Shown: positions 12,770-60,921 of the stretch, in pieces
Position numbering within the stretch: position 1 is the first letter of the stretch
Layout of the letters: each line of letters opens with the position of its first letter
DNA from: Gemmatales bacterium
Lineage (GTDB): Bacteria; Planctomycetota; Planctomycetia; Gemmatales; HRBIN36
Reading direction: 5' to 3'
DNA: 64,000 bases
Assembly (NCBI GenBank): GCA_041640595.1
Contig: JBEPZY010000002.1
Coordinates: 210,984 to 274,983, forward strand
Made by a program: the position numbers and the translations under genes
Notes under the pieces: generated by a model
What the model saw: only the letters and a program-made list of their open reading frames with translations
What the model was told of the DNA's origin: nothing
The model's database searches: none

Positions 12770-13350
12770 GTCCGCTCTGGTCTTCTTGTGCCGGTGCGCA
12801 GATACGTCCCGAGGCTTCCTGATGATTGCACCCTAGTCCGCCTTGGTCTTCTTTGTGCCAGTGCGCAGATAGTCCTCATAGAGTTGCGCGAACCTCTCCA
12901 AGTCCGCTTTTGGTGTTCTTTGTGCCAGTGCGCAGATACATCACGAGCCCTCTTGAGGATTGCACCCTAGTCCGCCTTGGTCTTCTTGTGCCGTTGCGCA
13001 GATAGTTCTCGTAGAGTTGCGCGAACCTTTCCAGGTCCGCTTCTGGTGTTCTTTGTGTCGGTGCGCAGATACATCACGAGTCTTCTTGAGGATTGCACCC
13101 AGGCCCGCTTTGGTCTTCTTGTGCTGTTTTTGGTCTTCTTGGGCCGTTGCGCAGATAGTTCTCGTAGAGTTGCGCGAACCTTTCCAGGTCCGCTTCTGGT
13201 GTTCTTTGTGCCGGTGCGCAGATAGTTTCCATAGAGTTACGCGAACCTTTCCAAGCCCCCTTTGGTCTCTTTTCTGCCGTTGCGCAAATAGCTCTCAGAG
13301 TTGCGCGAACCTCTCCAAGCCCGCTTCTGGCGTTGTTTGTGTCGGTGCGC
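12770..13350. repeat. Tandem array of about 9 units, period 65-67 bp (one 86), with A/B alternating linkers
   Basis: Core ending (G/T)TGCGCAGATA at about 12794, 12861, 12928, 12994, 13061, 13147, 13214, 13280, 13345. Confidence 0.9.
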
Positions 13351-13502
13351 TCGAGGTGATTGGCACATTTTACGACCAAACCGGCCGCAGGCCAGGCAAC
13401 TCGCCGCAACACCTGCCGCCAGCCCGGCGGCTCCCCCACGCGCCGACGGCTAAAGCGGCGGTGCGAAGTAGCACCTACCAACACGCCGTGCCTGGCGCCG
13501 GT

Positions 13503-13610
13503 TCGCTAGTTCACCAGAACGGCGGTGGTGCTGGGCTGATTGTGACGGCGATGACGACTGGTTTTTCGACGGGGAGTCGCTAGTTCACCAGAACGCCGGT
13601 GGTGCTGGGC
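13503..13610. repeat. 34-bp direct repeat (1 mismatch) separated by 40 bp; duplicates the stop region of the ELWxxDGT gene
   Basis: tcgctagttcaccagaacg(g/c)cggtggtgctgggc at 13503-13536 and 13577-13610. Confidence 0.9.
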
Positions 13611-16438
13611 GGGGTGAAGCTCACGATCGCGTCGTTGCCGGCCATGTCGCGGATGAACGTGCCCGCTGGCCGCATAATCGGCGAGAGTATCTCTATCCCG
13701 TTCGTGTCGCGGTCGGAGGACTGAATCACATAGCGGAACCGCAGCGTTCTCGAGTCCGGTTGGCTGTAGAAAACCGCGTTGCGAATCACACTGCCGATAC
13801 GCAGCTGGATAAATGGTTTCGCGGTGCTGGTGGTACCGACGTTGACCGACTCACTGAATCGCACCACGATGTCCAGCGCCTGGCCGGTTACATAATGCCC
13901 GTTGGCCGGCGGTGTTACCAGCACAATCGTCGGGGCCACCGCATCCACTTTCACGTTCGGCGTGCTCGGATTGGTGAAGGTCGTGATAGCATCGTGCCCG
14001 GCCTGGTCGCGGATGAAAGTTCCCGCAGGCAGCAGAATCGGCGAGAGGATTTCGATCCCGTCGGTGTCCAGATCGCCGCTTTGCACTACGGAGCGGAAGC
14101 GCAGCGTGGTGGGGTCCGGTTGGATGTCGAAAAGCGCATCAGCAGTCCGCGAGCCAATCCGCACCTGCAGATGTGGCCGAAGGGTGCTGGTGGTGCCAAC
14201 GGTGACCGGCTCACTGAAGCGAATTAAGATTTCCAGTGCCCCGCCGGCACGATACCAGCCGTTGGCTGGCGGCGTAACCTGAACGATGCTCGGCGGTACA
14301 GTATCCACCAGAACGCCACTGGTATCCGGCGGTACAAAAACCAGGGCCGCAGCGTTGTCCGCGGTGTCCTTAATCGTTCCGCCGTTCAGGTCGAGCGGCG
14401 AAACTACGGTGATCCCATCTGTGTCCAGGTCGTCTGACTGCACAGTGTACCGGAAGAGCAAACTGCTCGAGCCGCTGCCGGACTGAAAGGTCGCGTAACG
14501 CGTCGCGTCGCCGATGGTCAGTTGCAAGCGCGGTGTCCCGAAAGTGGTGTCCACCACCACCGGACGGTCGAATACCACGGTGAAATCGAGGTTCTGGCCA
14601 AGCTTGTAAATGCCGCTTCCGGGGCCGCTGACGCTGTCAATCACCGGGCCCTGGTGATTGACCAGCACGACACTGAGCGGAGGCGTAAAGTCCAGCTGAG
14701 CATGGTTGCCTGCCCTGTCTCTGATGCTCCCCCCATTGAGGTCAATAGGCGTAACCAGGGTGATGCCATCCGAGTCCAGGTCTTCTAGTGCCACCGTATA
14801 ACGGAAGCGAAGAGTAGTTGTGCCACTGCCGGACTCATAGGTCGCATACCGGACCAACGGGGGAATGCTTTCGCCCACGTTGCTGCCGAACCTCAGCACC
14901 AGTCGCGGCGTGCCCGTAACCAACACTGGTTCGCTGAATTCCACCTCGAAATAAAGATCGTCCTCCACCGAGTAGTTGCCATTAGCCGGTGGCGAGACCC
15001 GGATAATTTCAGGCTCCAGCTCGTCGCTGGCCCAGAGTTCCATGCCATGCGTGCCATCGCTAGCAGCGAAAAACAGCGTGCCGTTGACGTTGGTGAGCCA
15101 CGTGGGACTGGAGCCAGCCGAACCCGGCCGGATATCTTGCACCAGGTAGGTGCTGTTCGCATCGCCATAACTGAACCAGAGTTCCCTGCCATACGTGCCA
15201 TCGTCGGCCAGGAAGAACAGCACACCGTTGACGTTGGTCAGCCCGGAGGGCTCAGAACTAGCAGAACCCGGCCGGATGTCCTTGACCATCACGGTGCCGC
15301 CGGACGTGCCATCACTCTTCCAGAGTTCGAGGCCATTCGTGCCATCGTTGGCAGCGAAAAACAGTGTGCCGTTGACGTTGGTGAGCTTGTTAGCGCCGGA
15401 CCCAAACGGACTCGGCCGGAAGGCCTTGACCATCACGGTGCCGCTGGATGTGCCATCGCTTTTCCAGAGTTCGATGTTGGAGGAGAAGGACCCAAGGCCA
15501 GTCCAGAAAACCAGTGTGCCGTTGACGTTGGTGAGATAGCTAGGATTGGAGCTAGCCAAGCCCGACCGGATGTCCCTGACCGGCACGGTGCCGGTGGACG
15601 TGCCGTCGCTTTTCCAGAGTTCGTAGCCGCTGGTGCCGTCGTTGGCCCGGAAAAACAACGTGCCGTTGACGTTGGCGAGCCACGCAGGGTTGGAATCAGC
15701 CGAGCCCGGTCCGATGTTCTTGACTAGCACGGTGCCAGTGGAAGTGCCATCGCTCTTCCAGAGTTCGTAGCCGCTGGTGCCGTCGTCGGCCCGGAAAAAC
15801 AGCGTGCCGTTGACGTTGGTGAGCGACACAGAACGCGAATCACCTGAGCCCGGCCAGATGTCCTTGACCAGCACGGTGCCAGCGGAAGTGCCATCACTCT
15901 TCCAGAGTTCTCTTCCCTTCGTGCCGTCGTCGGCGGTGAAAAACAGCGTGCCGTTGACGTTGGTGAGATAGCGAGGATGGGAGCGAGCCGAGCCCGGCCA
16001 GATGTCCCTGACCAGCATGGTGCCAGTGGAAGTGCCATCACTCTTCCAGAGTTCTCTTCCCTTCGTGCCGTTGTCGGCCGTGAAAAACAGCGTGCCGTTG
16101 ACGTTGGTGAGCCAGTAAGGATTGGAGCCAGCCGTGCCCGGACGGATGTCCCGGACCATGACGGTGCCGGAGGACGTGCCATCGCTCTTCCATAGTTCCG
16201 CACCGAAACGCCCCTGGCGGGCTACGAAAAACAGCGTGCCGTTGACCTCGGTGAAGTTGCTGGGCGAGGAGCTTCCTGCCCCAGGGAAAATGTTTCTGAC
16301 CAGGAATGTGGCCGGCACGGTGCGGTCTTCGAGTTGCTCGAAACCCAGTTGGGCCTTGTGAGACGGGCGGGATGGTTTCGGTTGCTCCGCCACGAATCCC
16401 AGACACATCCGCCACACGTTGAGCAGCCACTTGCGCAT
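13580..16438 (-). CDS. ELWxxDGT-repeat beta-propeller surface protein with planctomycete LEDRTVPA leader and four C-terminal Ig-like repeats
   Basis: About 9 ELW(K)SDGT repeats with TNVNGTLFF; FEQLEDRTVPA motif; C-terminal repeats FSEPV.V..LRFRYTV..DLDTDGI; RBS AAGGAGG upstream of ATG 16438. Confidence 0.92.
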   Translation of the reverse strand: MRKWLLNVWRMCLGFVAEQPKPSRPSHKAQLGFEQLEDRTVPATFLVRNIFPGAGSSSPSNFTEVNGTLFFVARQGRFGAELWKSDGTSSGTVMVRDIRPGTAGSNPYWLTNVNGTLFFTADNGTKGRELWKSDGTSTGTMLVRDIWPGSARSHPRYLTNVNGTLFFTADDGTKGRELWKSDGTSAGTVLVKDIWPGSGDSRSVSLTNVNGTLFFRADDGTSGYELWKSDGTSTGTVLVKNIGPGSADSNPAWLANVNGTLFFRANDGTSGYELWKSDGTSTGTVPVRDIRSGLASSNPSYLTNVNGTLVFWTGLGSFSSNIELWKSDGTSSGTVMVKAFRPSPFGSGANKLTNVNGTLFFAANDGTNGLELWKSDGTSGGTVMVKDIRPGSASSEPSGLTNVNGVLFFLADDGTYGRELWFSYGDANSTYLVQDIRPGSAGSSPTWLTNVNGTLFFAASDGTHGMELWASDELEPEIIRVSPPANGNYSVEDDLYFEVEFSEPVLVTGTPRLVLRFGSNVGESIPPLVRYATYESGSGTTTLRFRYTVALEDLDSDGITLVTPIDLNGGSIRDRAGNHAQLDFTPPLSVVLVNHQGPVIDSVSGPGSGIYKLGQNLDFTVVFDRPVVVDTTFGTPRLQLTIGDATRYATFQSGSGSSSLLFRYTVQSDDLDTDGITVVSPLDLNGGTIKDTADNAAALVFVPPDTSGVLVDTVPPSIVQVTPPANGWYRAGGALEILIRFSEPVTVGTTSTLRPHLQVRIGSRTADALFDIQPDPTTLRFRSVVQSGDLDTDGIEILSPILLPAGTFIRDQAGHDAITTFTNPSTPNVKVDAVAPTIVLVTPPANGHYVTGQALDIVVRFSESVNVGTTSTAKPFIQLRIGSVIRNAVFYSQPDSRTLRFRYVIQSSDRDTNGIEILSPIMRPAGTFIRDMAGNDAIVSFTPPSTTGVLVN

Positions 16439-16639
16439 GCAATCCTCCTTTCTACGGGTGGGTCGATGCGGAAAAGCCGCCGCAAAGTATTGGGGATGTG
16501 GCAACGGGCTCCAGATGCCAGACAACTGGAAAGGAGAGCGCGAACGGCTGCACGGGCCAGCGATTCTCACCCGCCCGGCCAGTTGAATGACAACCGTGGC
16601 TCGATGCCAGGTTTCGATGTTACCAGACCCGCCAGCCAC

Positions 16640-16892
16640 CGTCAAGGGAAAACTGGCGATGAGTCAGAACTTGCGGCCGGCTTCGGCAAAAATTGGTGTC
16701 GCGGCCATGATTCGAACGCATGGGACGAGTCAGAACTTGCGGCCGCCTTCGCCTGGCTAACGACCGAGTATCAGCTCGACCGTCAAACAAAAACTGGGCA
16801 TGGGTCAGAAGTTGCGGGCAATACAAATTTCGACTTGATGAAGGCAGTGTTTACGCAACGCCACAAATTAGTCAGAAGTTGAGGGCAATACA
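16640..16892. repeat. Degenerate 4-copy mini-array (GTCAGAA[C/G]TTGCGG core), spacing 66/75/67 bp
   Basis: Copies at about 16661, 16727, 16802, 16869. Confidence 0.75.
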
Positions 16893-16973
16893 GGTTTCGA
16901 CGGCGGGCTCACCTCCGGATAGTGCGGTCATCGGACCGGCAGCAGGTCGTTCGCCGAGCGACGACTGCCAAAT

Positions 16974-18090
16974 CAAGAGCGGCGGGCGTTATCCCGCCGT
17001 GGTATCGAAAAACGCATCTGCAACGGCGAGTGATCTTCGTGGAGTGGTTACGTTTGCCACTGCACAATCGGCTCCCGCACTACGGGGGGCTTACGCCCCC
17101 CGCTCTTGGTGAACGGTGTCCGGTCGGTGAGGAAATGGGGATTTTTGCGATACACGAACGCACGTTCCCAAGAGCGGCGGGCGTCAGCCCGCCGTGGTGT
17201 GGTAACGCCATTGCAATTGCGGACGCTTGCGACCAGCGACCCGCGTTAGGCTGCCGCTGGTCGGAAACCACGGTTGCAATGGCAAGGCACTGGATTTCCG
17301 CGTTTCGGATTCGCTTACCGAGTACATCCCACGGGGGGCTTACGCCCCCCGCTCTTGTTCCGACTACGACGACCGTCTGCCGAAAGAATGACGATTTTTG
17401 CGATGCACGAACGCACGTTCACAAGAGCGGCGGGGGTCAGCCCGCCGTGGTACGGTGAACCGAACGCCGTGCCGCAGGAATCACGCACTGTGCAGCGACT
17501 ATGCGACACGGAATCAAGAGCGGCGGGCCTCAGCCCGCCGTGGGTGTAAGTAACGCAATTGCAATTGCGGACGCGTTCGTCCAGCGGCGGGCGTGAGCCC
17601 GCCGTGTGTGTTGGGGAAGCGCACTTGCAAGAGCGCTTCCGCAAAGTCGCGGGGGACTGCCGACGGTGTGCTCACGAACGCCGGTGGAGTCGCAGTAGCG
17701 AACCCACGGGGGGCTTACGCCCCCCGCTCTTGTTCCGACTACGACGACCGTCTGCCGAAAGAATGACGATTTTTGCGATGCAGAAACGCACGTTCACAAG
17801 AGCGGCGGGGGTCAGCCCGCCGTGGTACGGTGAACCGAACGCCGTGCCGCAGGAATCACGCACTGTGCAGCGACTATGCGACACGGAATCAAGAGCGGCG
17901 GGCCTCAGCCCGCCGTGGGTTTGCAAATCGCGTGTGCGACGGCGATGCGATGAATTTCGGCGTCTCGAACTCGTGTGCGGAGCGCACTCCACGGGGGGCT
18001 TACGCCCCCCGCTCCTGGTTGCACGACGTGCGTTCGGCACAAGATGCGCGGTTTGCGATGCGAAGACGCTCGTCCGGCCAAGAGCGGCGG
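16974..18090. repeat. REP/REPIN-like palindrome cluster 1 (about 12 hairpins) with an internal 375-bp-offset duplication
   Basis: CAAGAGCGGCGGGCGTCAGCCCGCCGTGG forward copies and CCACGGGGGGCTTACGCCCCCCGCTCTTG inverted copies; 17328-17545 repeated at 17703-17920. Confidence 0.9.
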
Positions 18091-18109: not shown

Positions 18110-18598
18110 GATTTTCCACCAGCTTGCTACGTTCCGAATTGGTAACGCTGGGCTCAGCCTAGCAAAACCCGCCCCGGCCATGGCGATTTTGCATCGGCTT
18201 GCTTCTTTCCGAATTGGCAACGGCGGTGCGATTTTGGTTCGGCTCCTTGGGCTTTCGGCGACTTTACACCTGTTTGCTACGTTCCGAATTGGTAACGCTG
18301 AGCTCAGCGTAGCAAAGCCCGCCCCGGCCATGGCAATTTTCCATCGGATTGCTTCTTTCCGAATTGGCAACGGCGGTGCGATTTTGGTTCGGCTCCTCGG
18401 GCTTTCGGGGATTTTGCACCGGCTTGCTACGTTCCGAATTGGTAACGCTGGGCTCAGCTTAGCAAAGCCCGTCCCGGCCACGGCGATTTCGCATCGGCTT
18501 GCTTCTTTCCGAATTGGCAACGGCGGTGCGATTTTGGCTCGGCTCCTCGGGCTTTCGGCGACTTTGCACCAGCTTGCTACGTTCCGAATTGGTAACGG
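18110..18598. repeat. Tandem array, exact 75-bp period with 150-bp A/B higher-order unit (7 cores)
   Basis: TTCCGAATTGG at 18132, 18207, 18282, 18357, 18432, 18507, 18582. Confidence 0.93.
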
Positions 18599-19066
18599 CT
18601 ACACAGAGCCTGGCGGCTTGCCGTCGCAAACGCCGGTTCGAGAAATCGGTCGAAGATTGCGACGTGTGGGCACAGCTTGCCCCAAACCGTGGACGAGGGC
18701 GCGGAGGATACGTGATGCCCCAGGTTGCTGGGGTCGTCCTTGCCAAAGGTAGTGCGGGGACGAAGGTGCGTGCCATGTGGGGTGCCCTGGGTTGTTGCGG
18801 TTATCGTTGCCAAGGGGTGATGCCTCAGAGGGCTTATCAAACGTCGCGCCTAGACGAAGGTGCGTACAATGCTTGTTGCCCTGAACCACGCCGGAGCGGG
18901 AAAAGTTCTCGTCCGCGGAAGGTATTCACGCTGCCGCACAGTGCGGTGTGATTTGAATCTGGCCGGGACAGGTCAATTTTGCGTCAGCGCAAGATGTCCC
19001 CAGAGGCCGTAGTCTCGCCTGATGCTGAGCGAGACTGCGAGGGTAAAATTTTTCGTCGGGGACTGC

Positions 19067-44800: not shown

Positions 44801-45538
44801 ATCGCGCATATATCCTTCAGCGCAGTAAACCTTTACCCATAGAAACGTTACGTCGCAAGACCGGGCAGTGCCAACCGTGATCCTGCGAGGCGACGGAATC
44901 CAGACTGCCAGGATGGCAGGCTCAGGTCTATTCCCCGCTCAGGGGTGCCAGCCCATGCCCAGCAACGAACCGCAAGCGCACACAAATGTTCCAGCGCTAG
45001 CCATTGGCGGACACACGGGTGCCAGCCTTGGCCAGTAAAGAACGGCAAACCTATCGCGGTTCCTTTCCGAACAGGGGCAAGGTCAACGCCATTGGGAGAA
45101 GACCAACGAACTGCTAGCCCACCGCGGTTTGTTGCCCAGCAACGTCGCACGTTGAACGTCGAAGGAGGCATCCGCCAGCAACAGCAACGAACCGCAAGCC
45201 CATCTCACCCCAACTGATGCTCGGCCTGCCTCATTTGGCGAAGCGAAGGTTTGCGATTGGTTCCTGCGCGAGCCAGGCGGACACGGAGAAAGCGGCTTGT
45301 ATGATAAATGGCAGCGCCGGGCTCGGTGATAGACGCAGCGACCGCGCCGGCTCGAACTGGTCGGCACCACGAACGCGGGCGAAGCGTCCATTGCCGAAGC
45401 GGCAGACGCAGTGTGCGGGTCTGACCGATCGGATGGCACGATCACAGCGCGAGTCAAGACTTTACACACGACGCCGTGGACGCAGTGCCCGGGCCTGACC
45501 GATCGGCGCGACGGTGGGTTACTAGCGGGGATTGAGCC

Positions 45539-48263: not shown

Positions 48264-48375
48264 GTGCGCTGGGCTGGCATCCAGGCTGCGGGTCGGCAAA
48301 TTCATCCGCAACATCGGTAAGCGTATTCGCGCGTCGCCAACGCATCCGTAACCGGAGCGGCGACCGTGTGCATAA

Positions 48376-48776
48376 CAGGAGCGGCGGGCGTCAGCCCGCC
48401 GTGGTGTGCGACACCGACGCTGTGCGGGGAAAGTCGAACATCGCACAGCGACTAGCGAACACGCAACCAGGAGCGGCGGGTGTCAGCCCGCCGTGGTCGG
48501 CGAAACGCCCAGCAACGGCGTTTGTTTCCCACGGCTGGCTTACGCCAGCCGCTCCTGATCGGGCGACGCACATTCACTGCAAAGCGCGTGCATGGCGACG
48601 CACAAACGCACGTGCCCAGGAGCGGCGGGTGTCAGCCCGCCGTGCGACGGCGAAACGCCCATGCAACGGCGTTCGTTTCCACGGCTGGCTAACGCCAGCC
48701 GCTCCTGATCGGGCGACGAACATTCACTGCAAAGCGCGTGCTTGCCGATGCACAAACGCACGTGCCCAGGAGCGGT
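48376..48776. repeat. REP/REPIN-like palindrome cluster 3 (about 6 hairpins, 150-bp unit)
   Basis: CAGGAGCGGCGGG..GCCCGCCGTG at about 48376, 48467, 48617, 48767 (truncated); inverted CCACGGCTGGCT(T/A)ACGCCAGCCGCTCCTG at about 48529, 48679. Confidence 0.88.
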
Positions 48777-52804: not shown

Positions 52805-52874
52805 CTCATCAGGCAGTTCTCTTGTGTCTATTTTGCTGGGCGAAACCGTCACCGCATTCGACGGTGCTGCCGGC
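52759..52874. repeat. About 37-bp direct repeat, offset 73 bp, duplicating the pyrG 3' end
   Basis: tttgc(c/t)gggcgaaaccgtcaccgcat(c/t)cgacggtgct at 52759 and 52832. Confidence 0.88.
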
Positions 52875-52959
52875 AGGTAAACTTCTCCACCGCAATTCAC
52901 CCGGCCCAACTCATTCCGCCGCCACAACGAACCATCGTGCCAGAAAGTTTCGTCATTCC

Positions 52960-53672
52960 CAAGAGCGGCGGGCGTTAGCCCGCCGTGCCTGTGGGTAACG
53001 CATGTGCAACGGGAGACAGTTTCGTCGTGATCGGCGGCCGTGATTCTCAAGAGCGGCGGGCGTCACCCCGCCGTGGGTGTGTGATACAAGCCATACGCCG
53101 GAGGTACGACGCACTGTTCGGCGACTACCGCACGCAGGAACAAGATCGGCACACGTCACCCCGCCGTGCGTATGAGTATCGCACCTGCAATCGCGTTCGT
53201 CCCCCACGGTCGGCTCACGCCGACCGCTCTTGGTCCCACAACGCACGTTCAATGCGAGGTGCGCGATTTGCGATGCACAAACGCGCGTTCCCAAGAGCGG
53301 CGGGCGTCAGCCCGCCGTGGTCGGCGAAGCGCCCATGCAACGGCGTTAGTTTCCCACGGCTGGCTTACGCCAGCCGCTCCTGATCGGGCGACGAACATTC
53401 ACCGCAAATCGCGTGATTTGCGATGCACATACGCGCGTTCCCAAGACCGGCACACGTCACCCCGCCGTGCGTGTAGGTAACGCATCTGCAACGGGAGACG
53501 GTTTCGTCGTGACCGGCAGCCGTGATTCTCAAGAGCGGCGGGCGTCAGCCCGCCGTGGGCGTGTGATACAAGCCATACGCCGGAGGAACAACACACTGTT
53601 CGGCGACCACCGCACGCACGTACAAGACCGGCACCCGTCACCCCGCCGTGCGTCTGGATAACGCACTTGCAA
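52960..53672. repeat. REP/REPIN-like palindrome cluster 4 (about 9 hairpins) with a 482-bp-offset diverged duplication
   Basis: Same family; 52960-53190 resembles 53442-53672. Confidence 0.88.
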
Positions 53673-53804
53673 TCGCGTTCGTTTTCGCCGAATGAGCAGC
53701 GTTGCACCTTCGCCCATACTGAAATCGGCGAATCTCCCGGCAGTGTCAGACCGCGAATAATAATTCTGCCAGGCAGTCCGTCGCATGTCCGAGGAGGTAT
53801 GGTC

Positions 53805-54221
53805 ATGAGCGAGAGCAGTCCGGGTGAACGCAAAATTATCGTGGATGAGGACTGGAAAGAACAGGCACGACGGGAAGCGGAAGCAACCCAGGCGGCCATA
53901 GACGCAGAACGCCAGCAGAAGCAAACCGCCATGCCCCCCGCTTCCTTCACGCTGCTGGTGCAGAGTCTGGTATCGCAGGCCCTGATCGCTCTCGGTCAGG
54001 CCGAGAATCCGCTCACCGGTCAGCGCTCGCCCGATCTCGAGATGGCCCGTTTCCACATTGATATGCTGGGCGTGCTGGAGGAAAAAACGAAGGGTAATCT
54101 CAGCCGACAGGAGGAGAACTTCCTTCGCGGTTGGCTCTTCGACCTTCGCCTGCGCTACGTGCAAACCGCTTCCCCACCCTCCGATTCGACCACTCCTCCG
54201 CAACCCGAAAAGAATCCATAG
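53805..54221 (+). CDS. DUF1844 domain protein
   Basis: KIIVDEDWK, PPASF..L, QALIALG, DL.MARFHIDMLGVLEEKTKGNL; GAGGAGG RBS. Confidence 0.88.
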   Translation: MSESSPGERKIIVDEDWKEQARREAEATQAAIDAERQQKQTAMPPASFTLLVQSLVSQALIALGQAENPLTGQRSPDLEMARFHIDMLGVLEEKTKGNLSRQEENFLRGWLFDLRLRYVQTASPPSDSTTPPQPEKNP

Positions 54222-54591
54222 TGCCGCGAACCTGGCAGCCTATATCACCGCACTGTTCACACTCTCAAAGCCACTAACAATCCGTATAATGCCCCGCTGC
54301 CCCACACCTCTAACTAGATTTCCGCGCTTGCGCGTAGCTGTTGAGCTTGCTACGAATTGCATCAGCGCCATACCTCTAATTAGATTTCCGCGCTTGCTCC
54401 TTGCTCGAAACCGCTAACAATGCTTAGAACGACGGGCTTAGTAGCCGGCATCGCTGCATTATTGACACGCCGCAATCCATTAAGCGTATCCGACTAAGCA
54501 ACTTAGTCGCCGCTCGTACCAGCGCGCACGGTAGCATGGCAAACTCAACCGCACGGTATTTCGGGTAGTCGCCAAAAGGTGGATCGTGTCG

Positions 54592-55011
54592 TTATCGGGC
54601 CCTCGCCAGACTGATCCGCATATAGGCCAGCGCATAAGCGTCTATACATGTAGTCGACCAGGCAAGACAGGCAGGGTACAGTTCCTCAGGATAAAACCAA
54701 AGATAAAAGACTGTCCCGCCTAACAACGCAATAGCTAATCTGGGCCACCGAATGAATGGAGCCAGAACCCACTGACAGGCCATGCGCCATCCTTTACGAA
54801 AGCCTATATAGCCTCCGTAAAGGCACCAGAGGGTCGCGGGGATACCAAGAAGAATTCTCATCCCCCAAACACTCCAGGACCACAGGCGGGCTAGCGGTGA
54901 ACCAGGCAGGTATAAATCCGCGAACCAAATCACTAAAGCAGTCCTCGCGGCGTGTGACCAAATAGCCCTGTCAGGGGGATACGTCGAAGCCACAGGCATG
55001 CACCCGACCAC
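54592..55011 (-). CDS. Small membrane protein, putative immunity protein of the adjacent Rhs toxin
   Basis: 139 aa, about 3 hydrophobic segments, directly downstream of the Rhs C-terminal domain; function inferred from position. Confidence 0.45.
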   Translation of the reverse strand: MVGCMPVASTYPPDRAIWSHAARTALVIWFADLYLPGSPLARLWSWSVWGMRILLGIPATLWCLYGGYIGFRKGWRMACQWVLAPFIRWPRLAIALLGGTVFYLWFYPEELYPACLAWSTTCIDAYALAYMRISLARAR

Positions 55012-55069
55012 GTCCTGATTAGGTGTTCGCCCAGTTAAAACGCCTCGACATCGGTTCAGGCCTTTCTAT

Positions 55070-56180
55070 CTAATGATGCACCGGTGGCAAGGGCGGAATT
55101 TTTCCCGTGCGCCTTAGCGTTACCCACCAGGGCAAGGCTGTTACCAGCCATTCGTAAATCACGCCCGCCACGGCCCCAACCCAGAAACCGTTGTTAAGTC
55201 CACACCGCGCCCCAACCTTCGCACCGCTAGCAAAGTCATCGCCTTGCTTACTGCCCTCCACCGAACCGACGATTCCGCCGGCGGTTGCCCCCACTATGCC
55301 CACGGTAAAGATCACAACCCCTCCGGGGCCGGTGCCTACGATGACCACAAAAATCCCGATAGCCGTCAAGCCACCAACCACGTAGCCCGTAACTGCACCA
55401 CCAGTGCTTCCTGAGTTGACCGGCCCAGTCAACCAGTCGACAACCGGATCGGGAAGGTGCCTAACCAGCCAGTCGAAAACATCTTCCCCTCTTGGATCCG
55501 CCGCACTCACCGGCGAGTTGAACACATACCGGTACAGGTTCGTATCGCCGGCGGTGAACGAGAGCGGGTCTTCGCGGAGGAAACGACCCTGGTGCTCGCA
55601 CCAACTATAGTAAGACTAAGCGACTCAGTTGCGGATCGTACCAGCGGGCACGGTAGCTATATAGTTTCGGCCGACACGCTAATAATACAGACTTAGGGCG
55701 GCGTCGAGTTCGCGGGCGGTGAACTTGAACCGGTCGCCGGCCGAGGGATTCGTCTCACTCAACACGTTGCCGAAACTGTCATACGTGATTTCGTCTAACA
55801 CTTCTAAGCCGTTACCATAACCGACGGCATGTGGCGGATCAATGTCGGCAGCTACATGAAAGCTCAGCTCTAAGCTCTTAACATAACCGCCGGCGTCGCG
55901 CACGATAGCCCGCACCGAGCCGATATAGTCCGTCAGATACCGGTCGGGAATGCCGCTAACCGGGTCGATCAGGCCGACGACCGATCAAGCTACCCACCGG
56001 CAGTTATAGTTCGCTCTGCATAGGTGCCTGTCACGACCCCCCGATGAAGTCAAGGTAATCAGGTACTCGCAACTGCCAGTCACAGTTCGCTCTCCATAGA
56101 TCTTCGTCGCCGGGTCTAACCGTGCTAACACCTGATCTATATCCGGGCCATAATCGCGATAGGCTTTAGATATTCGAACC
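55070..56180 (-). pseudogene. Fragmented Rhs repeat-associated core plus intact C-terminal putative toxin domain
   Basis: Minus-strand pieces in order: YGPDIDQVLAR, RYLTDYIGSVRAIV, DEITYDSFGNVLSETNPSAGDRFKFTARELDAALSLYY, YRARWYDPQ, GRFLREDPLSFTAGDTNLYRYVFNSPVSAADPRG; separated by stops, frameshifts and insertions. Confidence 0.85.
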
Positions 56181-56480
56181 GTTCATCACACGCGCCAACT
56201 TCCCTAGACGGTGATAGACCTGACTATGCTGGTGCGTGGCTTCAGGGATTACATATCTGCATCAATGATATATCTCACCAAGCGGAATCCCAGCCTCACG
56301 CATTTGCCTAATACTGTCCCAGTTCGGAGGTGGTTTTCTAGACGAACTGCGCCATGGACAACCAGTGGCGACCCATTTGTGGCGAAGTACGCGATGAATC
56401 TCGGCTCGCACTTTTGAGCTCGTGAATGCTTCGTCTATTAACCTACCGTTCAATTTGACATCGTCTAAGCCGAACTGAGT

Positions 56481-56720
56481 GGAAGAACTCCGGGTAAGGT
56501 TGGCGTCATTATTCTGGGGTTTGTGTGTGCAAGTTGACCTTCGTTGCGGGAGAACTCCGGGTAAGTTGGCGGTCATTATTCCGGGAGATTGGACGTCCAA
56601 TTTGGCGTTCGCTCCGGAAGAAGTCTGGGGGAGGGTAGGCGTCGTTGTTCGGCGGATCGCACTTTTAGTGCCGGTACCGCCACAAGCACGTCCACGGAAC
56701 GTAGCCGTTGTTATTCGGGG
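56481..56720. repeat. Degenerate array, about 35-bp repeat plus about 32-bp spacer, period 66-68
   Basis: agaactccgggtaag..ttggc..gtcattatt at 56484 and 56551, degenerate copy at about 56619, partial copy over the Nudix stop codon at about 56700-56720. Confidence 0.7.
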
Positions 56721-57097
56721 GAGTGTGGGGAGTGGCTGGTGAGGAGGTCGAGGACGGTGCGGTTGGCTTCCGGGAAGGGGAGCTGGTGGAGTTGGTGCAC
56801 AGGTACCCAGAAAAACGGCGGCCGTGGTGGCTGGCGATCTGGTAACTGGCATTCGACGAAAATCAGTCGCAATCGGCCATAGGGATAGGTATGCTCGACT
56901 TCGCACAGTCGCCGGGAAGCGTGCACGACCAGGCCGGTTTCTTCGAGGCATTCGCGGACAGCGGCCTGTTCGGGGGACTCGCCGGGTGCACACTTGCCGC
57001 CCGGGAACTCGGCCAGGCCCGCCAGAGGCACCTGGGCGGGGCGAATTCCCACCAGCACCTCGTTGCCCGAGCGCACCACAGCAATGGCAATCGGCAT
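56711..57097 (-). CDS. Nudix hydrolase, MutT-like
   Basis: Nudix box GKCAPGESPEQAAVRECLEETGL; EFPGG; start could be 57148. Confidence 0.9.
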   Translation of the reverse strand: MPIAIAVVRSGNEVLVGIRPAQVPLAGLAEFPGGKCAPGESPEQAAVRECLEETGLVVHASRRLCEVEHTYPYGRLRLIFVECQLPDRQPPRPPFFWVPVHQLHQLPFPEANRTVLDLLTSHSPHSPE

Positions 57098-57199
57098 GGG
57101 CGCCTGGGATCGGCAAGCGGGATCGTGCTGGGCTGAAGATGGGGCCATGCTTCGGTGAGTTCCGTGCACGTACTCAGGCACCGGGCAACGCGGATCGGT

Positions 57200-57664
57200 T
57201 TATCCTGGCGGGGACGGCGATTTTTTGCCGCTCTCCGCAGCTGGCAAAGATTTGACGACCAGCACCAGTCCGGGGGCCTTGCGCATGACCTGTTCGGCAA
57301 TACTGCCCAGAAGCACTCGCGTCAGGGCACCGTGGCCGTGCGAACCGAGCACGATGCAATCGGCTCCCGTGTCCGCAGCTACTCGCAGGATCGTCTCCGC
57401 CGGTGGTCCTTCGACGAGACGTTTTTCGACAGGCAGATCGGCAGCCTGATAGCGGGACATAGCGCGTTCGGCCTGGTGGCGATACTCGGCCACGGGGAGT
57501 CCCTGCAGGACGGCTTCGTAACCGGCAATTTCCGGCGGGATAACGTGTAGCACAATCAATCGTGCCCCGGTCGCCCGTGCCAGCTGACTGGCAACCTGCC
57601 AGGCCTGCTCGGCGCTGGGGGAAAAATCTGTCGCAAGCAGGATGGTTCGCGGGAGCGTTGGCAT
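57200..57664 (-). CDS. Universal stress protein
   Basis: ILLATDFS, IVLGSHG, LLGSIAEQVMRKAP..VLVV. Confidence 0.93.
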   Translation of the reverse strand: MPTLPRTILLATDFSPSAEQAWQVASQLARATGARLIVLHVIPPEIAGYEAVLQGLPVAEYRHQAERAMSRYQAADLPVEKRLVEGPPAETILRVAADTGADCIVLGSHGHGALTRVLLGSIAEQVMRKAPGLVLVVKSLPAAESGKKSPSPPG

Positions 57665-57753
57665 TTTGACTGACCCCGCGGGCTTCGGTGTGCAAAAATT
57701 ATCCTGGTGGAACTATCCGCCGTCGGTCGCAGCCCGGCGATATTGTACCGGAT

Positions 57754-59253
57754 TCAACGGCGGGCAACAATTTGATAGCGGCGGAGTTTGTTGAAAAGCG
57801 TGCGCAGGGAAATGCCCAGTAGTGCGGCGGCACGTCGGCGATGACCACCGGTGCGGCGTAATGCCTCTAAAATGGCCCGGCGTTCGATTTCTTCCAGCCG
57901 CAAGGTCGTCCCTGGCTCGGGAGAAGGACGCTGGATCGCTTCGCGGTCGGGCTGAGGGCAAGCAGCATCGCACAGTTGCGGCTTTGCGGTGAGCGAGTCG
58001 GCGTCGGAGATACCGTCGTGCGGCAGGCCCGGAGGAGTGACCGGGTTCGGCGGGTGCGAATTTTCCGTCACCAAATCCGGTGGCACCTGACCAGCCAGCG
58101 TGGTGGCGGAGAAATGTTCCGGCAAGAGTAGCACACAGCCGCAACACTGTGCGTACAGGGCGGCCTGGAAGATGGCGTTGCGGAGCTGGCGAACGTTGCC
58201 GGGCCAGCTTTGTGCGGCCAGCCAGTTCAGCGTAGCCGCGGCAAAATGCAAAGACGGTTGCGAAAGCTCCTGCCGCGCCTGGGTCAGGAAAAACTCGGCC
58301 AGCAGCGGAATGTCCTCCCGTCGCTGTCGCAAAGCGGGCAATTGCAAACGCAGCACGCTCAGACGATGCAGCAAATCCGCACGAAACCGTCCCAGTCGCA
58401 CCAGCGCTTCCAGCGGCCGATTGCTCAAAGCCAGCACCCGCACGGATACCGTTTTGCTGCGGGCCGAGCCCAAACGTTGCACCTGCTGTTCTTCCAGGAC
58501 ACGCAGCAATTTCCCTTGCAGGGCCAGGGGCAATTCACTGATTTCATCCAGAAGCAAAGTTCCGCCGTCGGCACGTTCAAAATAGCCGGGTCGGCTGCAG
58601 GTCGCTCCTGTGTAGGAACCGCGTTCACAACCGAACAATTCGCTCTCGGCAAGCGATTCGGGCAGGGCAGCACAGTTGACGGCAAGGAACGGCCCAGCCT
58701 GGCGACGACTCCAGCGGTGAATCCACCGGGCGAGACATTCCTTGCCGGTACCGGTTTCGCCACAGATCAAAACAGGCCAGTCCGTTTGCGCCATTCGCCA
58801 CGCCAGCCGTAACACTTCCTGCATGACTGTGCTACCGGCGATGAAACCGGGCAACGGCATGGGTGAAGTACCAGTGTAGCCGTCTGTTTCGGAAAAAACT
58901 GTCCTGACAGACGGTGAAACTTGCGGCCGATCGCTTCCGCTTGCCGATAGATGCACATCACCCGCCGGGTTTCCTTCAGCAGCAAGCGTGGGAACGGACG
59001 GAGTGTTTGCACCGGGCGGAACGTCGGGCGAAGCAAGCGACGACGGCTTCGTGGCCGAGTCAGCGACGAACTGCGCTACTTCGTGAAGGTGCTGCCATAA
59101 CGGTGTCGCCGCAAGCTGCGGTGGACTCACCGCCGGTTCAGACGGAAGCGATGTAGCCGGGGTCGTTCTGGTTGTCGGCCTGGTGCTGTTCCGCGGAGGC
59201 ATACGGACCGATGGCCTGGGTGGCAGTGGGTGTCGGCTCAGTGGCCTGAGCAA
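57754..59253 (-). CDS. Sigma-54-dependent activator (AAA+ and Fis-type HTH), no recognisable sensor domain
   Basis: GETGTGKE, ESELFGCERGSYTGA, LLLDEI, WPGNVRQL, AAALLGISLRTLFNKL; true start uncertain and probably downstream of 59253. Confidence 0.88.
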   Translation of the reverse strand: MLRPLSRHPLPPRPSVRMPPRNSTRPTTRTTPATSLPSEPAVSPPQLAATPLWQHLHEVAQFVADSATKPSSLASPDVPPGANTPSVPTLAAEGNPAGDVHLSASGSDRPQVSPSVRTVFSETDGYTGTSPMPLPGFIAGSTVMQEVLRLAWRMAQTDWPVLICGETGTGKECLARWIHRWSRRQAGPFLAVNCAALPESLAESELFGCERGSYTGATCSRPGYFERADGGTLLLDEISELPLALQGKLLRVLEEQQVQRLGSARSKTVSVRVLALSNRPLEALVRLGRFRADLLHRLSVLRLQLPALRQRREDIPLLAEFFLTQARQELSQPSLHFAAATLNWLAAQSWPGNVRQLRNAIFQAALYAQCCGCVLLLPEHFSATTLAGQVPPDLVTENSHPPNPVTPPGLPHDGISDADSLTAKPQLCDAACPQPDREAIQRPSPEPGTTLRLEEIERRAILEALRRTGGHRRRAAALLGISLRTLFNKLRRYQIVARR

Positions 59254-59698
59254 GCGGAGCTGTATCGGAGTGATCGGCTGAAGTCAGCGTGGCCAGGGCT
59301 GTCGCATAGGCTCGATACAGATTCTCTGCCTGATGCAGGCCCGTCAGTTGCCGATTCAGCCCGCTGCAGTGCTGTTCGGTGAGTTGTTCCGCTTCGTTCA
59401 GGCTTTGCAAAACTCGGCTGAGCAGGTGCAGGACCTGTTGCTTTTTGTCGGCCAGAACGGTACTTCGCGTTGCGGGCATGTCGGTCGAGTCCGACAGTGC
59501 GGAAGAAAGCGCGGCCAGCAATTCTGCCGACCGCTCCACTTCTCGATACATTCGCTGCAATGCTTCCCCGCCGAACTGACCGCTGCCGAGAGCAGCGCGA
59601 TACTCGGAAAGGTGTTGCTCGACCCGTTGATAACTTTCCGCCAGGCGGTCGAGCAGAGATTCTGGCGAAGTGAGCAGAGATTCGGCAGGCATGACCAT
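59138..59698 (-). CDS. Hypothetical helical protein
   Basis: 186-aa coiled-coil-like ORF co-oriented between the TPR genes and the activator. Confidence 0.5.
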   Translation of the reverse strand: MVMPAESLLTSPESLLDRLAESYQRVEQHLSEYRAALGSGQFGGEALQRMYREVERSAELLAALSSALSDSTDMPATRSTVLADKKQQVLHLLSRVLQSLNEAEQLTEQHCSGLNRQLTGLHQAENLYRAYATALATLTSADHSDTAPLAQATEPTPTATQAIGPYASAEQHQADNQNDPGYIASV

Positions 59699-59880
59699 CT
59701 CCGACAGCGAGTAGCCAGGTCAGACGGTTTTGCTCAGGCGGCCGGGTGAGGTTTTCCCGGCCCATGTCCTCGTCGCAAGAAGCTGTGACTTGCGGCTTGC
59801 GGATCGCTTGGCGTTGCGGTAAGAACTCGGACGTGGCATTCCTGGTCATTGAGTCTCGTGGCTTGCGGATCGCGGATGGC

Positions 59881-60921
59881 TTAGCGTTGCTGATCGGAAT
59901 GCTCACGCCGCGAGCGAAGCTCCGTCAGTCGGCGTTGCGTTTCCTGTTGCCAGCGCAGGTGGGTCAATTGCCAGCGGGCACATTCCACCGCAAAAGCATC
60001 GGTGCGACTGTTGGCAATTTCTCGTAAAAGCTGCAGGGCTTCGTCGTGCCGGCCCAGTTTGCGTAAGCAAGATGCTTGCAGATATTGCACCAGCAGGCGG
60101 TCTTCCCGGGAAAGCGTGGTGGTATCGAGCAATCGGAAAGCAGCCAGGGCACCTTCGTAATTGCCGGCGCGGAAAAGCATCTGGGCCAGTTCCATTGGAG
60201 CAATCGGTTTCTCGCCGATGGCAGTGTCGGTGGAGTTGCTCCGCGGCCTGGGGGAAGCGGTATCGGAAGAGTGTTTCGCTGCTGGATCGGGTGTGTGCGT
60301 GCCGGCGGGCTTGCCGGGAGCCGCTGGTCGCGGTGGGACGGTATCCGCAGGCGTTGCCGTCGGGTCACTGCCCGTTGGGAAAGTGGTCTCCCTGGCCGGG
60401 CCGGTTCGGGAAGAGGCAGGCGCGGACGGAGCGCTTCTCGGCTCGGATGAGGTATGTGCGTTCGCAGGAGTGGCGCCATTCAGCACCCACTGCCAGAGCA
60501 ACCGCTGCACCTGAAGCGATACGGTATCGCCAGGAGCAGCCTCAGGGTCGGGCGGCGGTAAATGGGGTTGTTGACGCACCTGCCGCAACCTTTCCCGCTC
60601 CTGGCGTAACTGCTCCAGAGCTTCGCGGAGTTGCTGGCTTTGCGCGGTGTCGGAAGGAGCAGGTGGAACGGATCGCCGTTGGGCACCAGGCGGACAATTC
60701 GTGCCAGGCCGACAGCTGGTGCCCGGCGCGTGGGTCGGGGCAGGCGGTTGCAATTCCTGTGGCAGGGTGCGCGGCGGAGGTAACTCACGATCGCCTTCCA
60801 CCGGCGGAGCAGCCCATAGCATCGCGCCGAGCAGAATCATCACGCTGACCGTCGCCGCCCAGCACACCAGGAGCGAAGCTGCTCGGCCTATCAGACCAGG
60901 GCCATATCGCAAGCGACACAT
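59881..60921 (-). CDS. Exported Pro-rich protein with C-terminal TPR
   Basis: Hydrophobic N-terminus; LAQMLFRAGNYEGALAAF, YLQASCLRKLGRHDEALQLL. Confidence 0.7.
   Translation of the reverse strand: MCRLRYGPGLIGRAASLLVCWAATVSVMILLGAMLWAAPPVEGDRELPPPRTLPQELQPPAPTHAPGTSCRPGTNCPPGAQRRSVPPAPSDTAQSQQLREALEQLRQERERLRQVRQQPHLPPPDPEAAPGDTVSLQVQRLLWQWVLNGATPANAHTSSEPRSAPSAPASSRTGPARETTFPTGSDPTATPADTVPPRPAAPGKPAGTHTPDPAAKHSSDTASPRPRSNSTDTAIGEKPIAPMELAQMLFRAGNYEGALAAFRLLDTTTLSREDRLLVQYLQASCLRKLGRHDEALQLLREIANSRTDAFAVECARWQLTHLRWQQETQRRLTELRSRREHSDQQR

Follow-up and report, generated by a model that had tools for sequence, protein, structure and literature searches.

Scattered repeat units in a hot-spring planctomycete genome are very probably fixed off-target integrations by its two CRISPR adaptation modules

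Results

Repeat units in the window

The window is a 64,000-nt stretch of the genome of a hot-spring planctomycete, a metagenome-assembled draft of 4.45 Mb in 42 contigs. Many loci in the window carry a direct repeat whose two copies are separated by a dissimilar insert. These units fall into a 30-nt class and a 37-nt class, named after the length of the duplicated segment. An earlier sequence-only reading of the window named 13 such loci. Ten of them are clear units, while those at 18691/18716 (77% identity) and 44959 (17 nt, 82%) are weak. There is no unit at 47834, where at most 16 of 30 positions match. The unit placed at 59794 by that reading is real and starts at 59785, but its offset is 73 and not 65–68, the 66-nt offset being a secondary 16-nt match. 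Three unlisted units, at 16804, 45405 and 56635, were added.

The first feature (12770–13350) is a multi-unit array with a period of 66–67, in which a 133-nt A/B double unit has been amplified. Its apparent geometry, a 36-nt repeat with inserts of 30/31 nt, departs from the expected 30 + 36. It is followed by a 37-nt-class unit at 13503–13610 (offset 74, 34-nt repeat), whose copies 13503–13536 and 13577–13610 are 97% identical and enclose the insert 13537–13576. The stop and the final codons of the minus-strand gene 13580–16645 fall in the second copy, as had been noted for units lying over the ends of adjacent genes. Two 30-nt-class units occupy 16661–16751 (offset 66, measured repeat 25 nt) and 16804–16901 (offset 67, 31-nt duplication, 36-nt insert). 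The entire former unit is also found in a paralogous segment at C2:42288, and the latter has a paralogous copy at C2:42407. The region 18110–18599 is a 37-nt-class array of seven copies of a repeat of about 38 nt with a period of 75 and two alternating inserts, A and B, amplified as a 150-nt unit. An old, decayed 30-nt-class unit (offset 67, 31 nt) lies at 18716–18813.

In the distal part of the window, a 37-nt-class unit with a measured repeat of 28 nt is located at 45405–45506 (offset 74, 89% identity). The unit at 52759–52868 is a textbook case of the same class, with an offset of 73, a 37-nt duplication (95%) and a 36-nt insert. Its first copy supplies the final codons of pyrG, whose present stop codon (52802–52804) lies inside the insert. 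Its counterpart in the 30-nt class is the intergenic unit 54302–54397 (offset 66, 30-nt duplication at 93%, 36-nt insert), which recurs in independent assemblies and in a strain that differs by about 2%. Another 30-nt-class unit (55803–55894, offset 66) lies on the minus strand inside a frameshifted Rhs/YD-repeat gene fragment. The proposed in-frame gain of 66 bp in an Rhs-type core was borne out here: the unit adds 22 codons, and the paralogue C3:79697–79922 lacks exactly 66 nt. Further units are found at 56001–56099 (37-nt class, offset 76, measured repeat 23 nt, 87%) and 56484–56722, where two or three decayed 30-nt-class units with offsets of 66–68 begin at 56484 (offset 67), 56530 and 56635. 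In the last unit, 59785–59890 (37-nt class, offset 73, 33 nt, 85% identity), the second copy covers the stop, at 59881, of the TPR gene 59881–60975 on the minus strand.

Genome-wide distribution of the offsets

Direct-repeat events were counted over the whole genome, with the canonical CRISPR arrays left out, as 24-nt windows with at least 21 matches. Offsets 65, 66, 67 and 68 gave 27, 80, 51 and 25 events, and offsets 72, 73, 74, 75 and 76 gave 54, 61, 73, 62 and 21, against a background of 0–10 at most other offsets. DNA shuffled within 200-nt blocks gave 0 events at each offset from 60 to 79. The excess at 65–68 and 73–76 bp that had been claimed for the window thus holds both there and across the 4.45-Mb genome, and the histogram differs from that of shuffled DNA as predicted. 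Separate peaks at offsets 87–93 correspond to REP-like elements and are unrelated; those at 126/144 are also distinct from the 66 and 74 classes. The catalogue comprises 237 scattered loci at the strict threshold, and roughly 500–900 repeat pairs are found at relaxed thresholds.

Resident CRISPR arrays and adaptation genes

Two canonical CRISPR arrays are present in the genome, and their periods equal those of the scattered units. The array A30 consists of 317 + 27 repeats of 30 nt with spacers of 35–40 nt (mode 36), and A37 of 247 repeats of 37 nt with spacers of 33–40 nt (mode 37). A30, on contig C8, adjoins type I-B cas genes and a Cmr module, the gene set being Cas2, Cas1, Cas4, Cas3, Cas5, Cas7 and then Cmr1–6. 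A37, on contig C1, adjoins Cas2, a reverse transcriptase (RT) and Cas1. Each array thus has its own adaptation pair, and the two cas1 and two cas2 genes are open frames. The I-B Cas1 matches TIGR03641 above the cut-off; the N-terminal 155 residues of its open frame carry no domain, and the frame is probably over-extended.

Comparison of the A30 spacers with the co-assembled contig C15 gave 34 BLAST rows, mostly from spacers of the cas-proximal array end. In 30 of the 34 the match is on one strand, and 26 of the 34 have a 5′-CCN PAM. C15 had no PHROG match, and Pfam gave only sub-threshold or general matches. These spacer matches suggest that the I-B system has been active recently, so that adaptation by a resident module is plausible.

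Geometry of the units and origin of the inserts

The duplication in the 66 class has a mode of 30 nt (30, 31, 32, 33 and 34 nt in 23, 16, 9, 7 and 4 cases, and almost none longer). That in the 74 class has a mode of 37–38 nt (36, 37, 38 and 39 nt in 14, 16, 19 and 11 cases). These are the repeat lengths of the two resident arrays. Many of the duplications as measured fall short of 30 or 37 nt, probably through mutation of their ends. The inserts measure 33–40 nt with a mode of 36 in both classes, which matches the resident spacers. The comparison with the repeat-plus-spacer lengths of the genome's own arrays, suggested by the sequence-only reading, therefore identifies the two peaks with the two array periods. 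Each locus carries its own repeat taken from local DNA, as that reading had stated.

The inserts are mutually unrelated, about 36 nt long and without conserved ends. A transposable element with target-site duplication was rejected, as inserts of this size share no sequence family. Compared in register with the neighbouring unit, the inserts show a mean identity of 0.31, and 5.9% exceed 0.6; they are not decayed copies of the flank. A source was sought for 322 inserts (610 at the relaxed threshold). Only two independent inserts could be linked to a canonical spacer or to C15: that at C2:174386 matches canonical spacer 184 (31 of 36 nt, 97%), and that at C2:407699 matches C15, the element targeted by the canonical array (30 of 35 nt, 93%). 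Three inserts (C3:406662, C5:166631 and C1:732923) match unrelated chromosomal sites. Each of these three chromosomal protospacers is followed by GGG, equivalent to CCC on the other strand, with boundaries ambiguous by up to 4 nt; at C3:484583 an alternative boundary leaves no CCN. No source was found for the remaining inserts of the 322 (610 relaxed). GC content was discarded as a sign of foreign origin because the differences are too small (0.54 and 0.58 in the scattered inserts, 0.55–0.57 in canonical spacers, 0.58–0.605 in flanks).

Some loci contain two or three different inserts between copies of one repeat, and 24 multi-insert chains were found. Chains with five inserts of only two kinds also exist. 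The suggestion that A/B arrays arose by later tandem amplification is supported by these chains and by TRF, which gave 91% for the 150-nt double unit and 66% for the 75-nt unit.

Empty sites and independent assemblies

A search for empty sites had been suggested, and they exist as paralogues of eight loci (seven catalogue loci and 55803 in the window); each paralogue lacks exactly one repeat and the insert. The best example is C3:417921 (39 + 36 + 39 nt) compared with C8, where the target is single and flank identity is 97.5%. The nearest genomes compared, about 76% identical in pyrG DNA, yielded no orthologous empty site, and the strains in other runs all have the tested loci. At the pyrG tail none can be read because the tail is not alignable between species.

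Contigs from three other runs, belonging to other studies, carry the loci, and one of them represents a strain about 2% diverged. The X2 and X3 contigs are identical to the window across 53700–55540 and 55784–60300, and the X4 contigs (about 2% diverged) cover these loci without any gap of unit size. The repeats are thus present in independent metagenome assemblies. Present and absent alleles were sought at the window loci in X2, X3, X4 and X7 contigs and no unit-sized gaps were seen, although contigs drop rare variants and gap-free contigs do not show that polymorphism is absent. Joints in the contigs of the other runs lie in the multi-copy Rhs-like region or in other places away from the units.

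Scattered units also occur in G001 and G003 (8 events in 153 kb and about 4–5 in 343 kb), two genomes of the same genus whose 30- and 37-nt repeats are homologous. The third, G002, has a 37-nt array and its Cas1 and showed 0 scattered units in 240 kb, which is weak evidence either way because the regional spread in the present genome is more than 10-fold. Outside the genus, G004 and G022 gave 1 and 2 events in the 400 kb sampled of each, which is the background level.

Choice of target

Among the 237 loci, 86 are intergenic compared with 19 expected, and 79 are inside open reading frames compared with 175 expected. Stop codons are overlapped by 36 and start codons by 32, each against an expectation of 17. 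Offsets divisible by three make up 52% inside open reading frames and 32% between genes (Fisher p = 0.0036). A preference for gene 3′ ends was rejected, given the similar numbers over stops and starts and the lack of orientation bias in the flanking genes. The copying of last codons reflects tolerance and not targeting. No clear enrichment was seen near the cas loci (A37, 3 events vs 5.5 expected; A30, 6 vs 2.7).

In the best orientation, the targets resemble the canonical repeats weakly but significantly more than random DNA does (10.6 vs 8.4 of 30 positions; in the 37-nt class 12.65 vs 10.70 of 37). A strong target motif was rejected. The best positions are a 3′-terminal C (50% vs 29%) and an A at position 35 in the 37-nt class, and what the repeats have in common, among themselves or with the canonical ones, amounts to only about 1–2 bits above the random control. 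No Rfam family matches the scattered repeats.

Discussion

The geometry of the units, the empty sites, the adjoining cas genes, the two CRISPR-related inserts and the distribution of the loci are direct observations. On this basis the scattered units are very probably fixed off-target integrations by the two CRISPR adaptation modules of the genome. Ectopic Cas1–Cas2 integration was the first option raised by the sequence-only reading, and the periods, duplications, inserts and empty sites support it; its other options, an unknown integrase and template switching, are not needed. That these particular integrases catalysed the events, and why their fidelity would be low, we infer.

We propose that each event is ordinary spacer integration that takes place at a non-CRISPR site. 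Cas1–Cas2 would attack at two staggered points separated by one repeat length (30 nt with the I-B module, 37 nt with the RT-linked module), and a prespacer of 33–40 nt would be joined between the two attack points. Gap repair would then duplicate the host segment on both sides, adding about 66–67 or 73–75 bp. The choice of target would be almost independent of sequence. Selection would remove most genic hits, leaving survivors that are intergenic, at gene ends or in frame. Repeated hits on some sites would yield small multi-insert 'neo-CRISPR' arrays, and unequal recombination may later have amplified some of these into the A/B arrays.

Another undescribed integrase or mobile element could be imagined that makes 30- and 37-nt duplications around a cargo of about 36 nt, the CRISPR dimensions being coincidental. 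Such an element would fit the nearly sequence-independent target choice and the fact that nearly all inserts are without an identified source. Yet four numerical coincidences, two periods and two duplication lengths, would be needed with arrays that lie beside intact cas1–cas2 genes. The inserts share no sequence and so define no element with ends, one of them is nearly identical to a canonical spacer, and the targets bear the significant likeness to canonical repeats described above. We consider this explanation very improbable.

It is no more credible that the units are fixed-step minisatellites, made by a lineage-specific error of replication or repair (slippage or template switching) with a constant step of about 66 or 74 bp, the apparent spacers being decayed units. 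A fixed period in unrelated sequences is what this process would produce, the A/B arrays do grow by tandem amplification, and the 36 + 30/31 geometry of the 12770 array is not predicted by an integrase ruler. Against it, the inserts do not resemble the neighbouring unit in register, and the empty sites reveal a foreign 36-nt segment added between copies of a single target. Both peaks, both duplication lengths and the insert lengths equal those of the resident arrays; moreover, one insert resembles a canonical spacer and another the targeted element C15. An assembly artefact or chance, to which a draft of 42 metagenomic contigs might be prone, has a negligible probability given the absence of events in shuffled DNA at offsets 60–79 and the agreement of the X2, X3 and X4 contigs over the loci.

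One point against off-target integration by the resident modules is that two different integrases would both have to err in one lineage, which would require a shared cause. A tentative joint reading, to which we give somewhat less than an even chance, is that both integrases are largely or wholly leader-independent in this thermophilic genus and continuously write spacers into the chromosome, as a mutational force and through a shared defect of fidelity. The misplaced spacers, at roughly 500–900 repeat pairs, would then match or outnumber the 587 spacers of the canonical arrays. They would be a significant source of mutation, creating new C-termini and in-frame insertions of 22–25 residues and making up about 1% of the genome. 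Once hit, a site would become a preferred target, and the 24 chains would be CRISPR arrays caught at birth. A missing or altered host fidelity factor, common to both, would account for the joint errors of two unrelated modules.

Previous work on off-target spacer integration was done in vitro and with E. coli that over-produced the integrase. The present genome would preserve several hundred natural events made by two different integrases, from which the strictness of targeting in the wild can be measured. The cost of errors can be read from the footprint of selection (the counts in and between open reading frames and the frame bias), the birth of new arrays from the multi-insert chains, and the frequency of protein remodelling from cases such as the pyrG tail and the Rhs core. 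For annotation, the rule would be to check short repeats that recur at one fixed step without explanation against the CRISPR period of the same genome.

Comparison with known systems

The scattered units have the period, repeat length and spacer length of the resident arrays in common with canonical CRISPR and with orphan or mini arrays. Unlike a canonical array they have no shared conserved repeat, each locus having its own host-derived one, and processing by Cas6 is not expected. Bacterial minisatellites (VNTRs) are similar in being short intergenic tandem units of fixed period that change copy number by whole units, as in the A/B arrays. A VNTR repeats its unit in full, whereas the repetition here is confined to 30 or 37 nt, with 36 unrelated nt in between; the empty sites also indicate insertion rather than copying. 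Ectopic acquisition in arrays of Streptococcus thermophilus and S. mutans, as described in PMC7999890, PMC5338259 and PMC8265633, likewise uses a site other than the leader-proximal repeat. That site is a genuine repeat within the array, whereas the targets here are non-CRISPR DNA anywhere in the chromosome.

The closest precedent is the off-target integration by Cas1–Cas2 at 'neo-CRISPR' loci reported by Nivala, Shipman and Church (Nat Microbiol 2018), here taken from the accounts in citing papers (bioRxiv 10.1101/148544, PMC7054753 and PMC6698737). According to these texts, type I-E Cas1–Cas2 was over-produced in E. coli supplied with oligonucleotides, and the events, rarer than integration into the array, were found in culture by deep sequencing. 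A spacer-sized insert was likewise placed between copies of a repeat-length genomic segment away from the array, and such loci can seed arrays. The frequency in bacteria is called unclear in the preprint that cites this work, and the natural evidence, from two other species, 'circumstantial' (bioRxiv 10.1101/148544). Our search of full-text literature found no report of natural events at the present scale. In contrast to the events in E. coli as these texts present them, a wild genome here carries 237 fixed loci at the strict threshold, attributable to two unrelated modules (I-B with Cas4, and RT-linked). These events have had time to diverge, and they reshape both gene ends and coding sequence. 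The kind of event is thus already known from Nivala et al. (2018), and what is new is its scale in nature, the involvement of two integrases and the recurrence of hits at single sites.

Genome-wide offset analysis

Near repeats were scanned for in the whole assembly of the Gemmatales bacterium (GCA_041640595.1; 4,448,679 bases, 42 contigs), in which the window occupies 210984–274983 of contig C2. For each offset between 25 and 300, an event was scored where 21 or more positions of a 24-nt window matched. With CRISPR arrays included, sharp peaks were obtained at offsets 65–68 (247 events at 66) and 72–76 (172 events at 74); harmonics appeared near 132, 148, 199, 221, 265 and 295. The background was 0–10 events at most offsets. 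DNA shuffled within 200-nt blocks, the control proposed by the sequence-only reading, gave 0 events at each offset from 60 to 79, and the two steps noticed in the window are found genome-wide. The 1099 events at offsets 63–78 include 589 in three clusters (315, 248 and 26), which are canonical CRISPR arrays. The peaks persist when the arrays are masked, with 27, 80, 51 and 25 events at offsets 65–68 and 54, 61, 73, 62 and 21 at offsets 72–76. The strict catalogue contains 429 repeat pairs (180 + 249), which are reduced to 237 loci by a filter for contigs longer than 20 kb and repeats of 24–48 nt. Under relaxed matching the excess over neighbouring offsets is 209 + 285 pairs (at least 24/30 matches), 308 + 372 (at least 22/30) and 418 + 470 (at least 20/30); the spacers in the canonical arrays number 587. 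Further genome-wide peaks at 87–93 are due to arrays of palindromic REP-like elements (core GAGCGGCGGGCGTCAGCCCGCCGTGG). In the window these lie at 17413–17923, 33659–34315, 48367–48775 and 52951–53656, with a spacing of 87–93 nt and 150 nt, and the CRISPR-type units are unrelated to them.

Canonical arrays and cas genes

The array A37 (C1:359749–377934; contigs are designated C1, C2 and so on) consists of 247 repeats of 37 nt with spacers of 33–40 nt (81 of 36 nt, 99 of 37 nt and 38 of 38 nt). The array A30 (C8:3–21080 and the end of C10) consists of 317 + 27 repeats of 30 nt with spacers of 35–40 nt (154 + 11 of 36 nt, 95 + 13 of 37 nt). The two array periods coincide with the two offset peaks, a comparison that the sequence-only reading had suggested. 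A separate set of adaptation genes adjoins each array. A30 is neighboured by genes for Cas2, Cas1 (type I-B model TIGR03641, over the cut-off), Cas4, Cas3, Cas5 and Cas7, followed by Cmr1, Cas10/Cmr2, Cmr3, Cmr4 and Cmr6. A37 is neighboured by genes for Cas2, a 550-residue group-II-intron-type reverse transcriptase and Cas1. An orphan two-repeat unit at C3:328836–328970, whose repeat is a few positions off the canonical 30-nt repeat and whose spacer matches contig C15 (34/37 nt) beside CCG, is a stray canonical-type mini-array and not a neo-repeat. A third small array, at C20:1210–1480 on a 4.7-kb contig, is a candidate for the organism; it has the variant 30-nt repeat GTTTCAATACCACACTGGTTCAATTAAAAG and a period of 67–68.

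Geometry of the units and empty sites

The scattered units consist of a duplicated host segment around an insert. In the 66 class, with the geometry of A30, the duplicated segment has a mode of 30 nt (23, 16, 9, 7 and 4 units with 30, 31, 32, 33 and 34 nt, hardly any longer). In the 74 class, with the geometry of A37, the mode is 37–38 nt (14, 16, 19, 11 and 5 units with 36, 37, 38, 39 and 40 nt). This difference between the classes is the one a ruler predicts. Shorter duplications, common in both classes, may reflect mutated ends. The inserts measure 33–40 nt with a mode of 36 in both classes, and among the 62 well-formed 66-class units listed all repeats and all inserts are different.

Paralogues with abutting flanks and a single copy of the target were searched for by comparing each locus, extended by 200 nt on either side, with all other parts of the genome. 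Such empty paralogues, 1 to 20 each, were found for seven loci: C1:321769, C2:603386, C9:75166, C3:358949, C3:358695, C3:417921 and C5:180131. An eighth candidate from this genome-wide search, C2:228502, was discounted as a REP element. The clearest case is C3:417921, where a 36-nt insert lies between two 39-nt copies. Each of its flanks is 97.5% identical to that of a paralogue on C8, which contains the 38–39-nt target once and differs in length by exactly 75 nt. In the comparison of C3:417921–418034 with C8:38203–38360, the two target copies differ at 6/39 positions, against a difference of only 2.5% between the flanks and the empty paralogue. Faster mutation of the duplicated segments is one possible cause; more speculatively, error-prone synthesis may have filled them in.

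Duplication lengths equal to those of the resident repeats, inserts of spacer length, resident cas1-cas2 genes and empty sites were all found. They support the leading proposal of the sequence-only reading, ectopic Cas1-Cas2-like integration, and the units are best read as off-target spacer integrations with the resident Cas1-Cas2 as putative catalysts. Decay of ordinary tandem copies is contradicted by the lack of likeness between the inserts and the DNA lying one period away: identity averages 0.31, near random for the composition, and exceeds 0.6 in 5.9%. The units are not an artefact of the assembly either, since contigs of two metagenome runs from other studies match the window identically over 53700–55540 and 55784–60300; both explanations had been named in advance as ones that would overturn the proposal.

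Units in the window

The window contains 10 strict loci, compared with 3.5 expected. Of 13 positions named by the sequence-only reading, 10 proved to be clear units, 18691/18716 and 44959 are weak, and at 47834 no unit is present. The unit at 59785 had been placed in the 66-nt class and actually belongs to the 73-nt class. Three units not on that list are located at 16804, 45405 and 56635. Two further candidates were rejected: 17519 (offset 64) consists of two palindromic REP-like elements that mimic a unit, and 8887 (offset 72) is a coding low-complexity repeat. A 42/84-nt coding repeat occupies 8880–9324 within the ORF 8010–10334, and the minus strand of 13580–16645 encodes a protein of 1021 residues, which carries a Big_5 domain and eight to nine coding repeats of 144 nt (48 residues). 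An Rfam search of the window returned only a tRNA.

Both arrays described earlier were recovered by Tandem Repeats Finder (TRF) and a repeat finder, at 12770–13128 (period 67/133) and 18113–18599 (period 75/150). The region 18110–18599 is an amplified two-insert A/B array and 12770–13350 probably is one too, because the TRF score of the double unit is far above that of the single unit; this supports the tandem amplification proposed for them. The 12770–13350 array is built of a 36-nt repeat and 30/31-nt inserts, not 30 + 36. Part of its unit may be native coding sequence, since insert B and the repeat would encode a plausible minus-strand peptide, ADLERFAQLYEDYLRTGTK (hand translation).

The 55803 unit sits inside a minus-strand Rhs/YD-repeat gene fragment that is frameshifted. 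The unit has an empty paralogue at C3:79697–79922, on which the two BLAST segments overlap by 28 nt while lying 38 nt apart in the window, so the gain is 66 nt. As had been claimed, this gain in the Rhs core is in frame; it adds 22 codons, flanked on either side by the duplicated peptide. The Rhs/YD-repeat fragment (55070–55984, minus strand) combines a C-terminal core motif with a variable tail. In four metagenome runs the depth over 55468–56130 is 4–10 times that of the adjacent DNA, and several paralogues of this region lie on C3 and C6.

Source of the inserts

Matches to DNA outside the arrays were found for 47 canonical spacers. A30 spacers, most of them near the cas-proximal end of the array, give 34 BLAST rows of 30 nt or more on contig C15 (9,585 bp, low GC of 0.50); 30/34 fall on one strand and 26/34 have a 5'-CCN PAM. 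These matches are signs that the I-B system was recently active. The pattern resembles primed adaptation directed at a mobile element that is resident or was recently present. The ORFs of C15 are orphans, except for a matrixin-like peptidase and a sub-threshold match to protein-primed DNA polymerase B.

Non-self matches were found for 88 of the 322 neo-inserts searched, most of them local or paralogous copies of the whole locus. The insert of C2:174386 matches canonical spacer 184 of A30 (31/36 nt, 97%), and the insert common to the paralogous pair C2:407699 and C3:561426 matches C15 (30/35 nt, 93%). These matches suggest that inserts and CRISPR spacers are drawn from overlapping pools. For C2:136237, C3:484583 and C3:643266, the insert matches an unrelated site in the chromosome (94–100%), in each case followed by GGG (CCC on the other strand), with boundaries ambiguous by up to 4 nt and an alternative boundary of C3:484583 lacking CCN. 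The C3:417921 insert, in the class with 37-nt repeats, shows a 90% match to a dispersed element. A relaxed search with 610 inserts added no informative source matches. The search of the inserts against the genome proposed by the sequence-only reading thus yielded a few informative matches and no source for nearly all inserts.

Target choice and selection

In the best orientation, neo-targets share 10.6/30 positions with the canonical repeat, compared with 8.4 for random 30-mers (n = 22), and 12.65/37 compared with 10.70 (n = 17); the likeness is smaller in wider sets. An orientation-aware profile gave 4.48 bits, with controls at 3.32 ± 0.21 (n = 91), and 5.57 bits, with controls at 3.79 ± 0.26 (n = 77). 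The likeness of the neo-targets to the canonical repeats is thus weak.

The 237 loci were placed on an approximate map of genes, built from greedy ORFs with a minimum of 100 codons and covering 86%. Intergenic loci number 86 (19 expected), loci inside ORFs 79 (175 expected), loci over a stop 36 (17 expected) and loci over a start 32 (17 expected). The intergenic excess and the deficit in ORFs show that the loci pass a selection filter. Inside ORFs, 52% of events have an offset divisible by three, compared with 32% between genes (Fisher p = 0.0036). Neither a 3'-end preference nor a bias by flanking-gene orientation was seen among the 237 loci. Three units in the window include a gene end. In pyrG the present stop lies within the insert, and the tail ends in DGALG, compared with DGAAGR when read from copy 2. 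In the other two cases, both minus-strand genes, copy 2 contains the stop and the encoded protein has not been altered.

Repeated hits, age and distribution

In 24 chains one neo-repeat extends across at least two inserts: 18 have two different inserts, three have three, and three are amplified, for example with 5 inserts of 2 kinds. Some combine both classes (offsets 75 + 67 at one site). For 237 random events, coincidence within 12 nt is expected about 0.2 times genome-wide, or about once if events are confined to the approximately 0.6 Mb outside ORFs (hand arithmetic). Given so few expected coincidences, either a first integration favours later ones or some sites are intrinsically hot.

The copies are identical in 11 of 162 well-formed pairs, and most pairs have 1–4 differences. 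Contigs of a strain diverged by about 2%, from another metagenome run, carry the window units 54302, 56001, 56484 and 59785; between strain and window, the point differences at 54302 are independent in the two copies. The few identical pairs and the units shared with this strain show that the process is old and long-running, not a recent burst.

Density is 82–100 loci/Mb on C2, C3, C4 and C9 and 4–17/Mb on C1, C6 and C7 (5–25 times), and 100-kb bins have a mean of 5.2 loci and a variance of 18.6. Since regional density in this genome spreads more than ten-fold, a blank in a sampled relative is weak evidence. Within the genus, G001 has 8 scattered events in 153 kb sampled, and G003, with both Cas1 types and homologous 30- and 37-nt repeats, has about 4–5 in 343 kb. 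No scattered unit was found in 240 kb of G002, which has only the reverse-transcriptase-type Cas1 and a 37-nt array; its 33 events are all canonical-array fragments on 600-bp contigs. Samples of 400 kb contain 1 event in a genome of another genus (G004) and 2 in one of another family (G022). The best pyrG relatives belong to an uncultured Planctomycetota MAG (81%) and Thermogutta MAGs (70–73%), and most runs that contain the stretch are metagenomes of hot springs and microbial mats.

Comparison with known off-target integration

The closest known process is the off-target integration that gives rise to 'neo-CRISPR' loci, described in E. coli over-producing Cas1-Cas2. Of the papers citing that work, PMC7054753 describes off-target events as rarer than array expansion, and a preprint (10.1101/148544) calls their commonness in bacteria 'unclear' and the evidence in two other species 'circumstantial'. 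Off-target sites have also been used in vitro for learning what the integrase recognises (PMC6698737). In the literature listed by the search, 'ectopic' acquisition denotes insertion at the wrong repeat inside an array. A full-text literature search returned no report of a natural genome with off-target events at such a scale. The mechanism is of a known kind, and it is the natural scale, the two modules and the repeated hits that make the record unusual. In E. coli the integrase was over-produced, whereas here a natural genome with two modules was hit repeatedly at single sites, and it is an unusually rich record of off-target integration.
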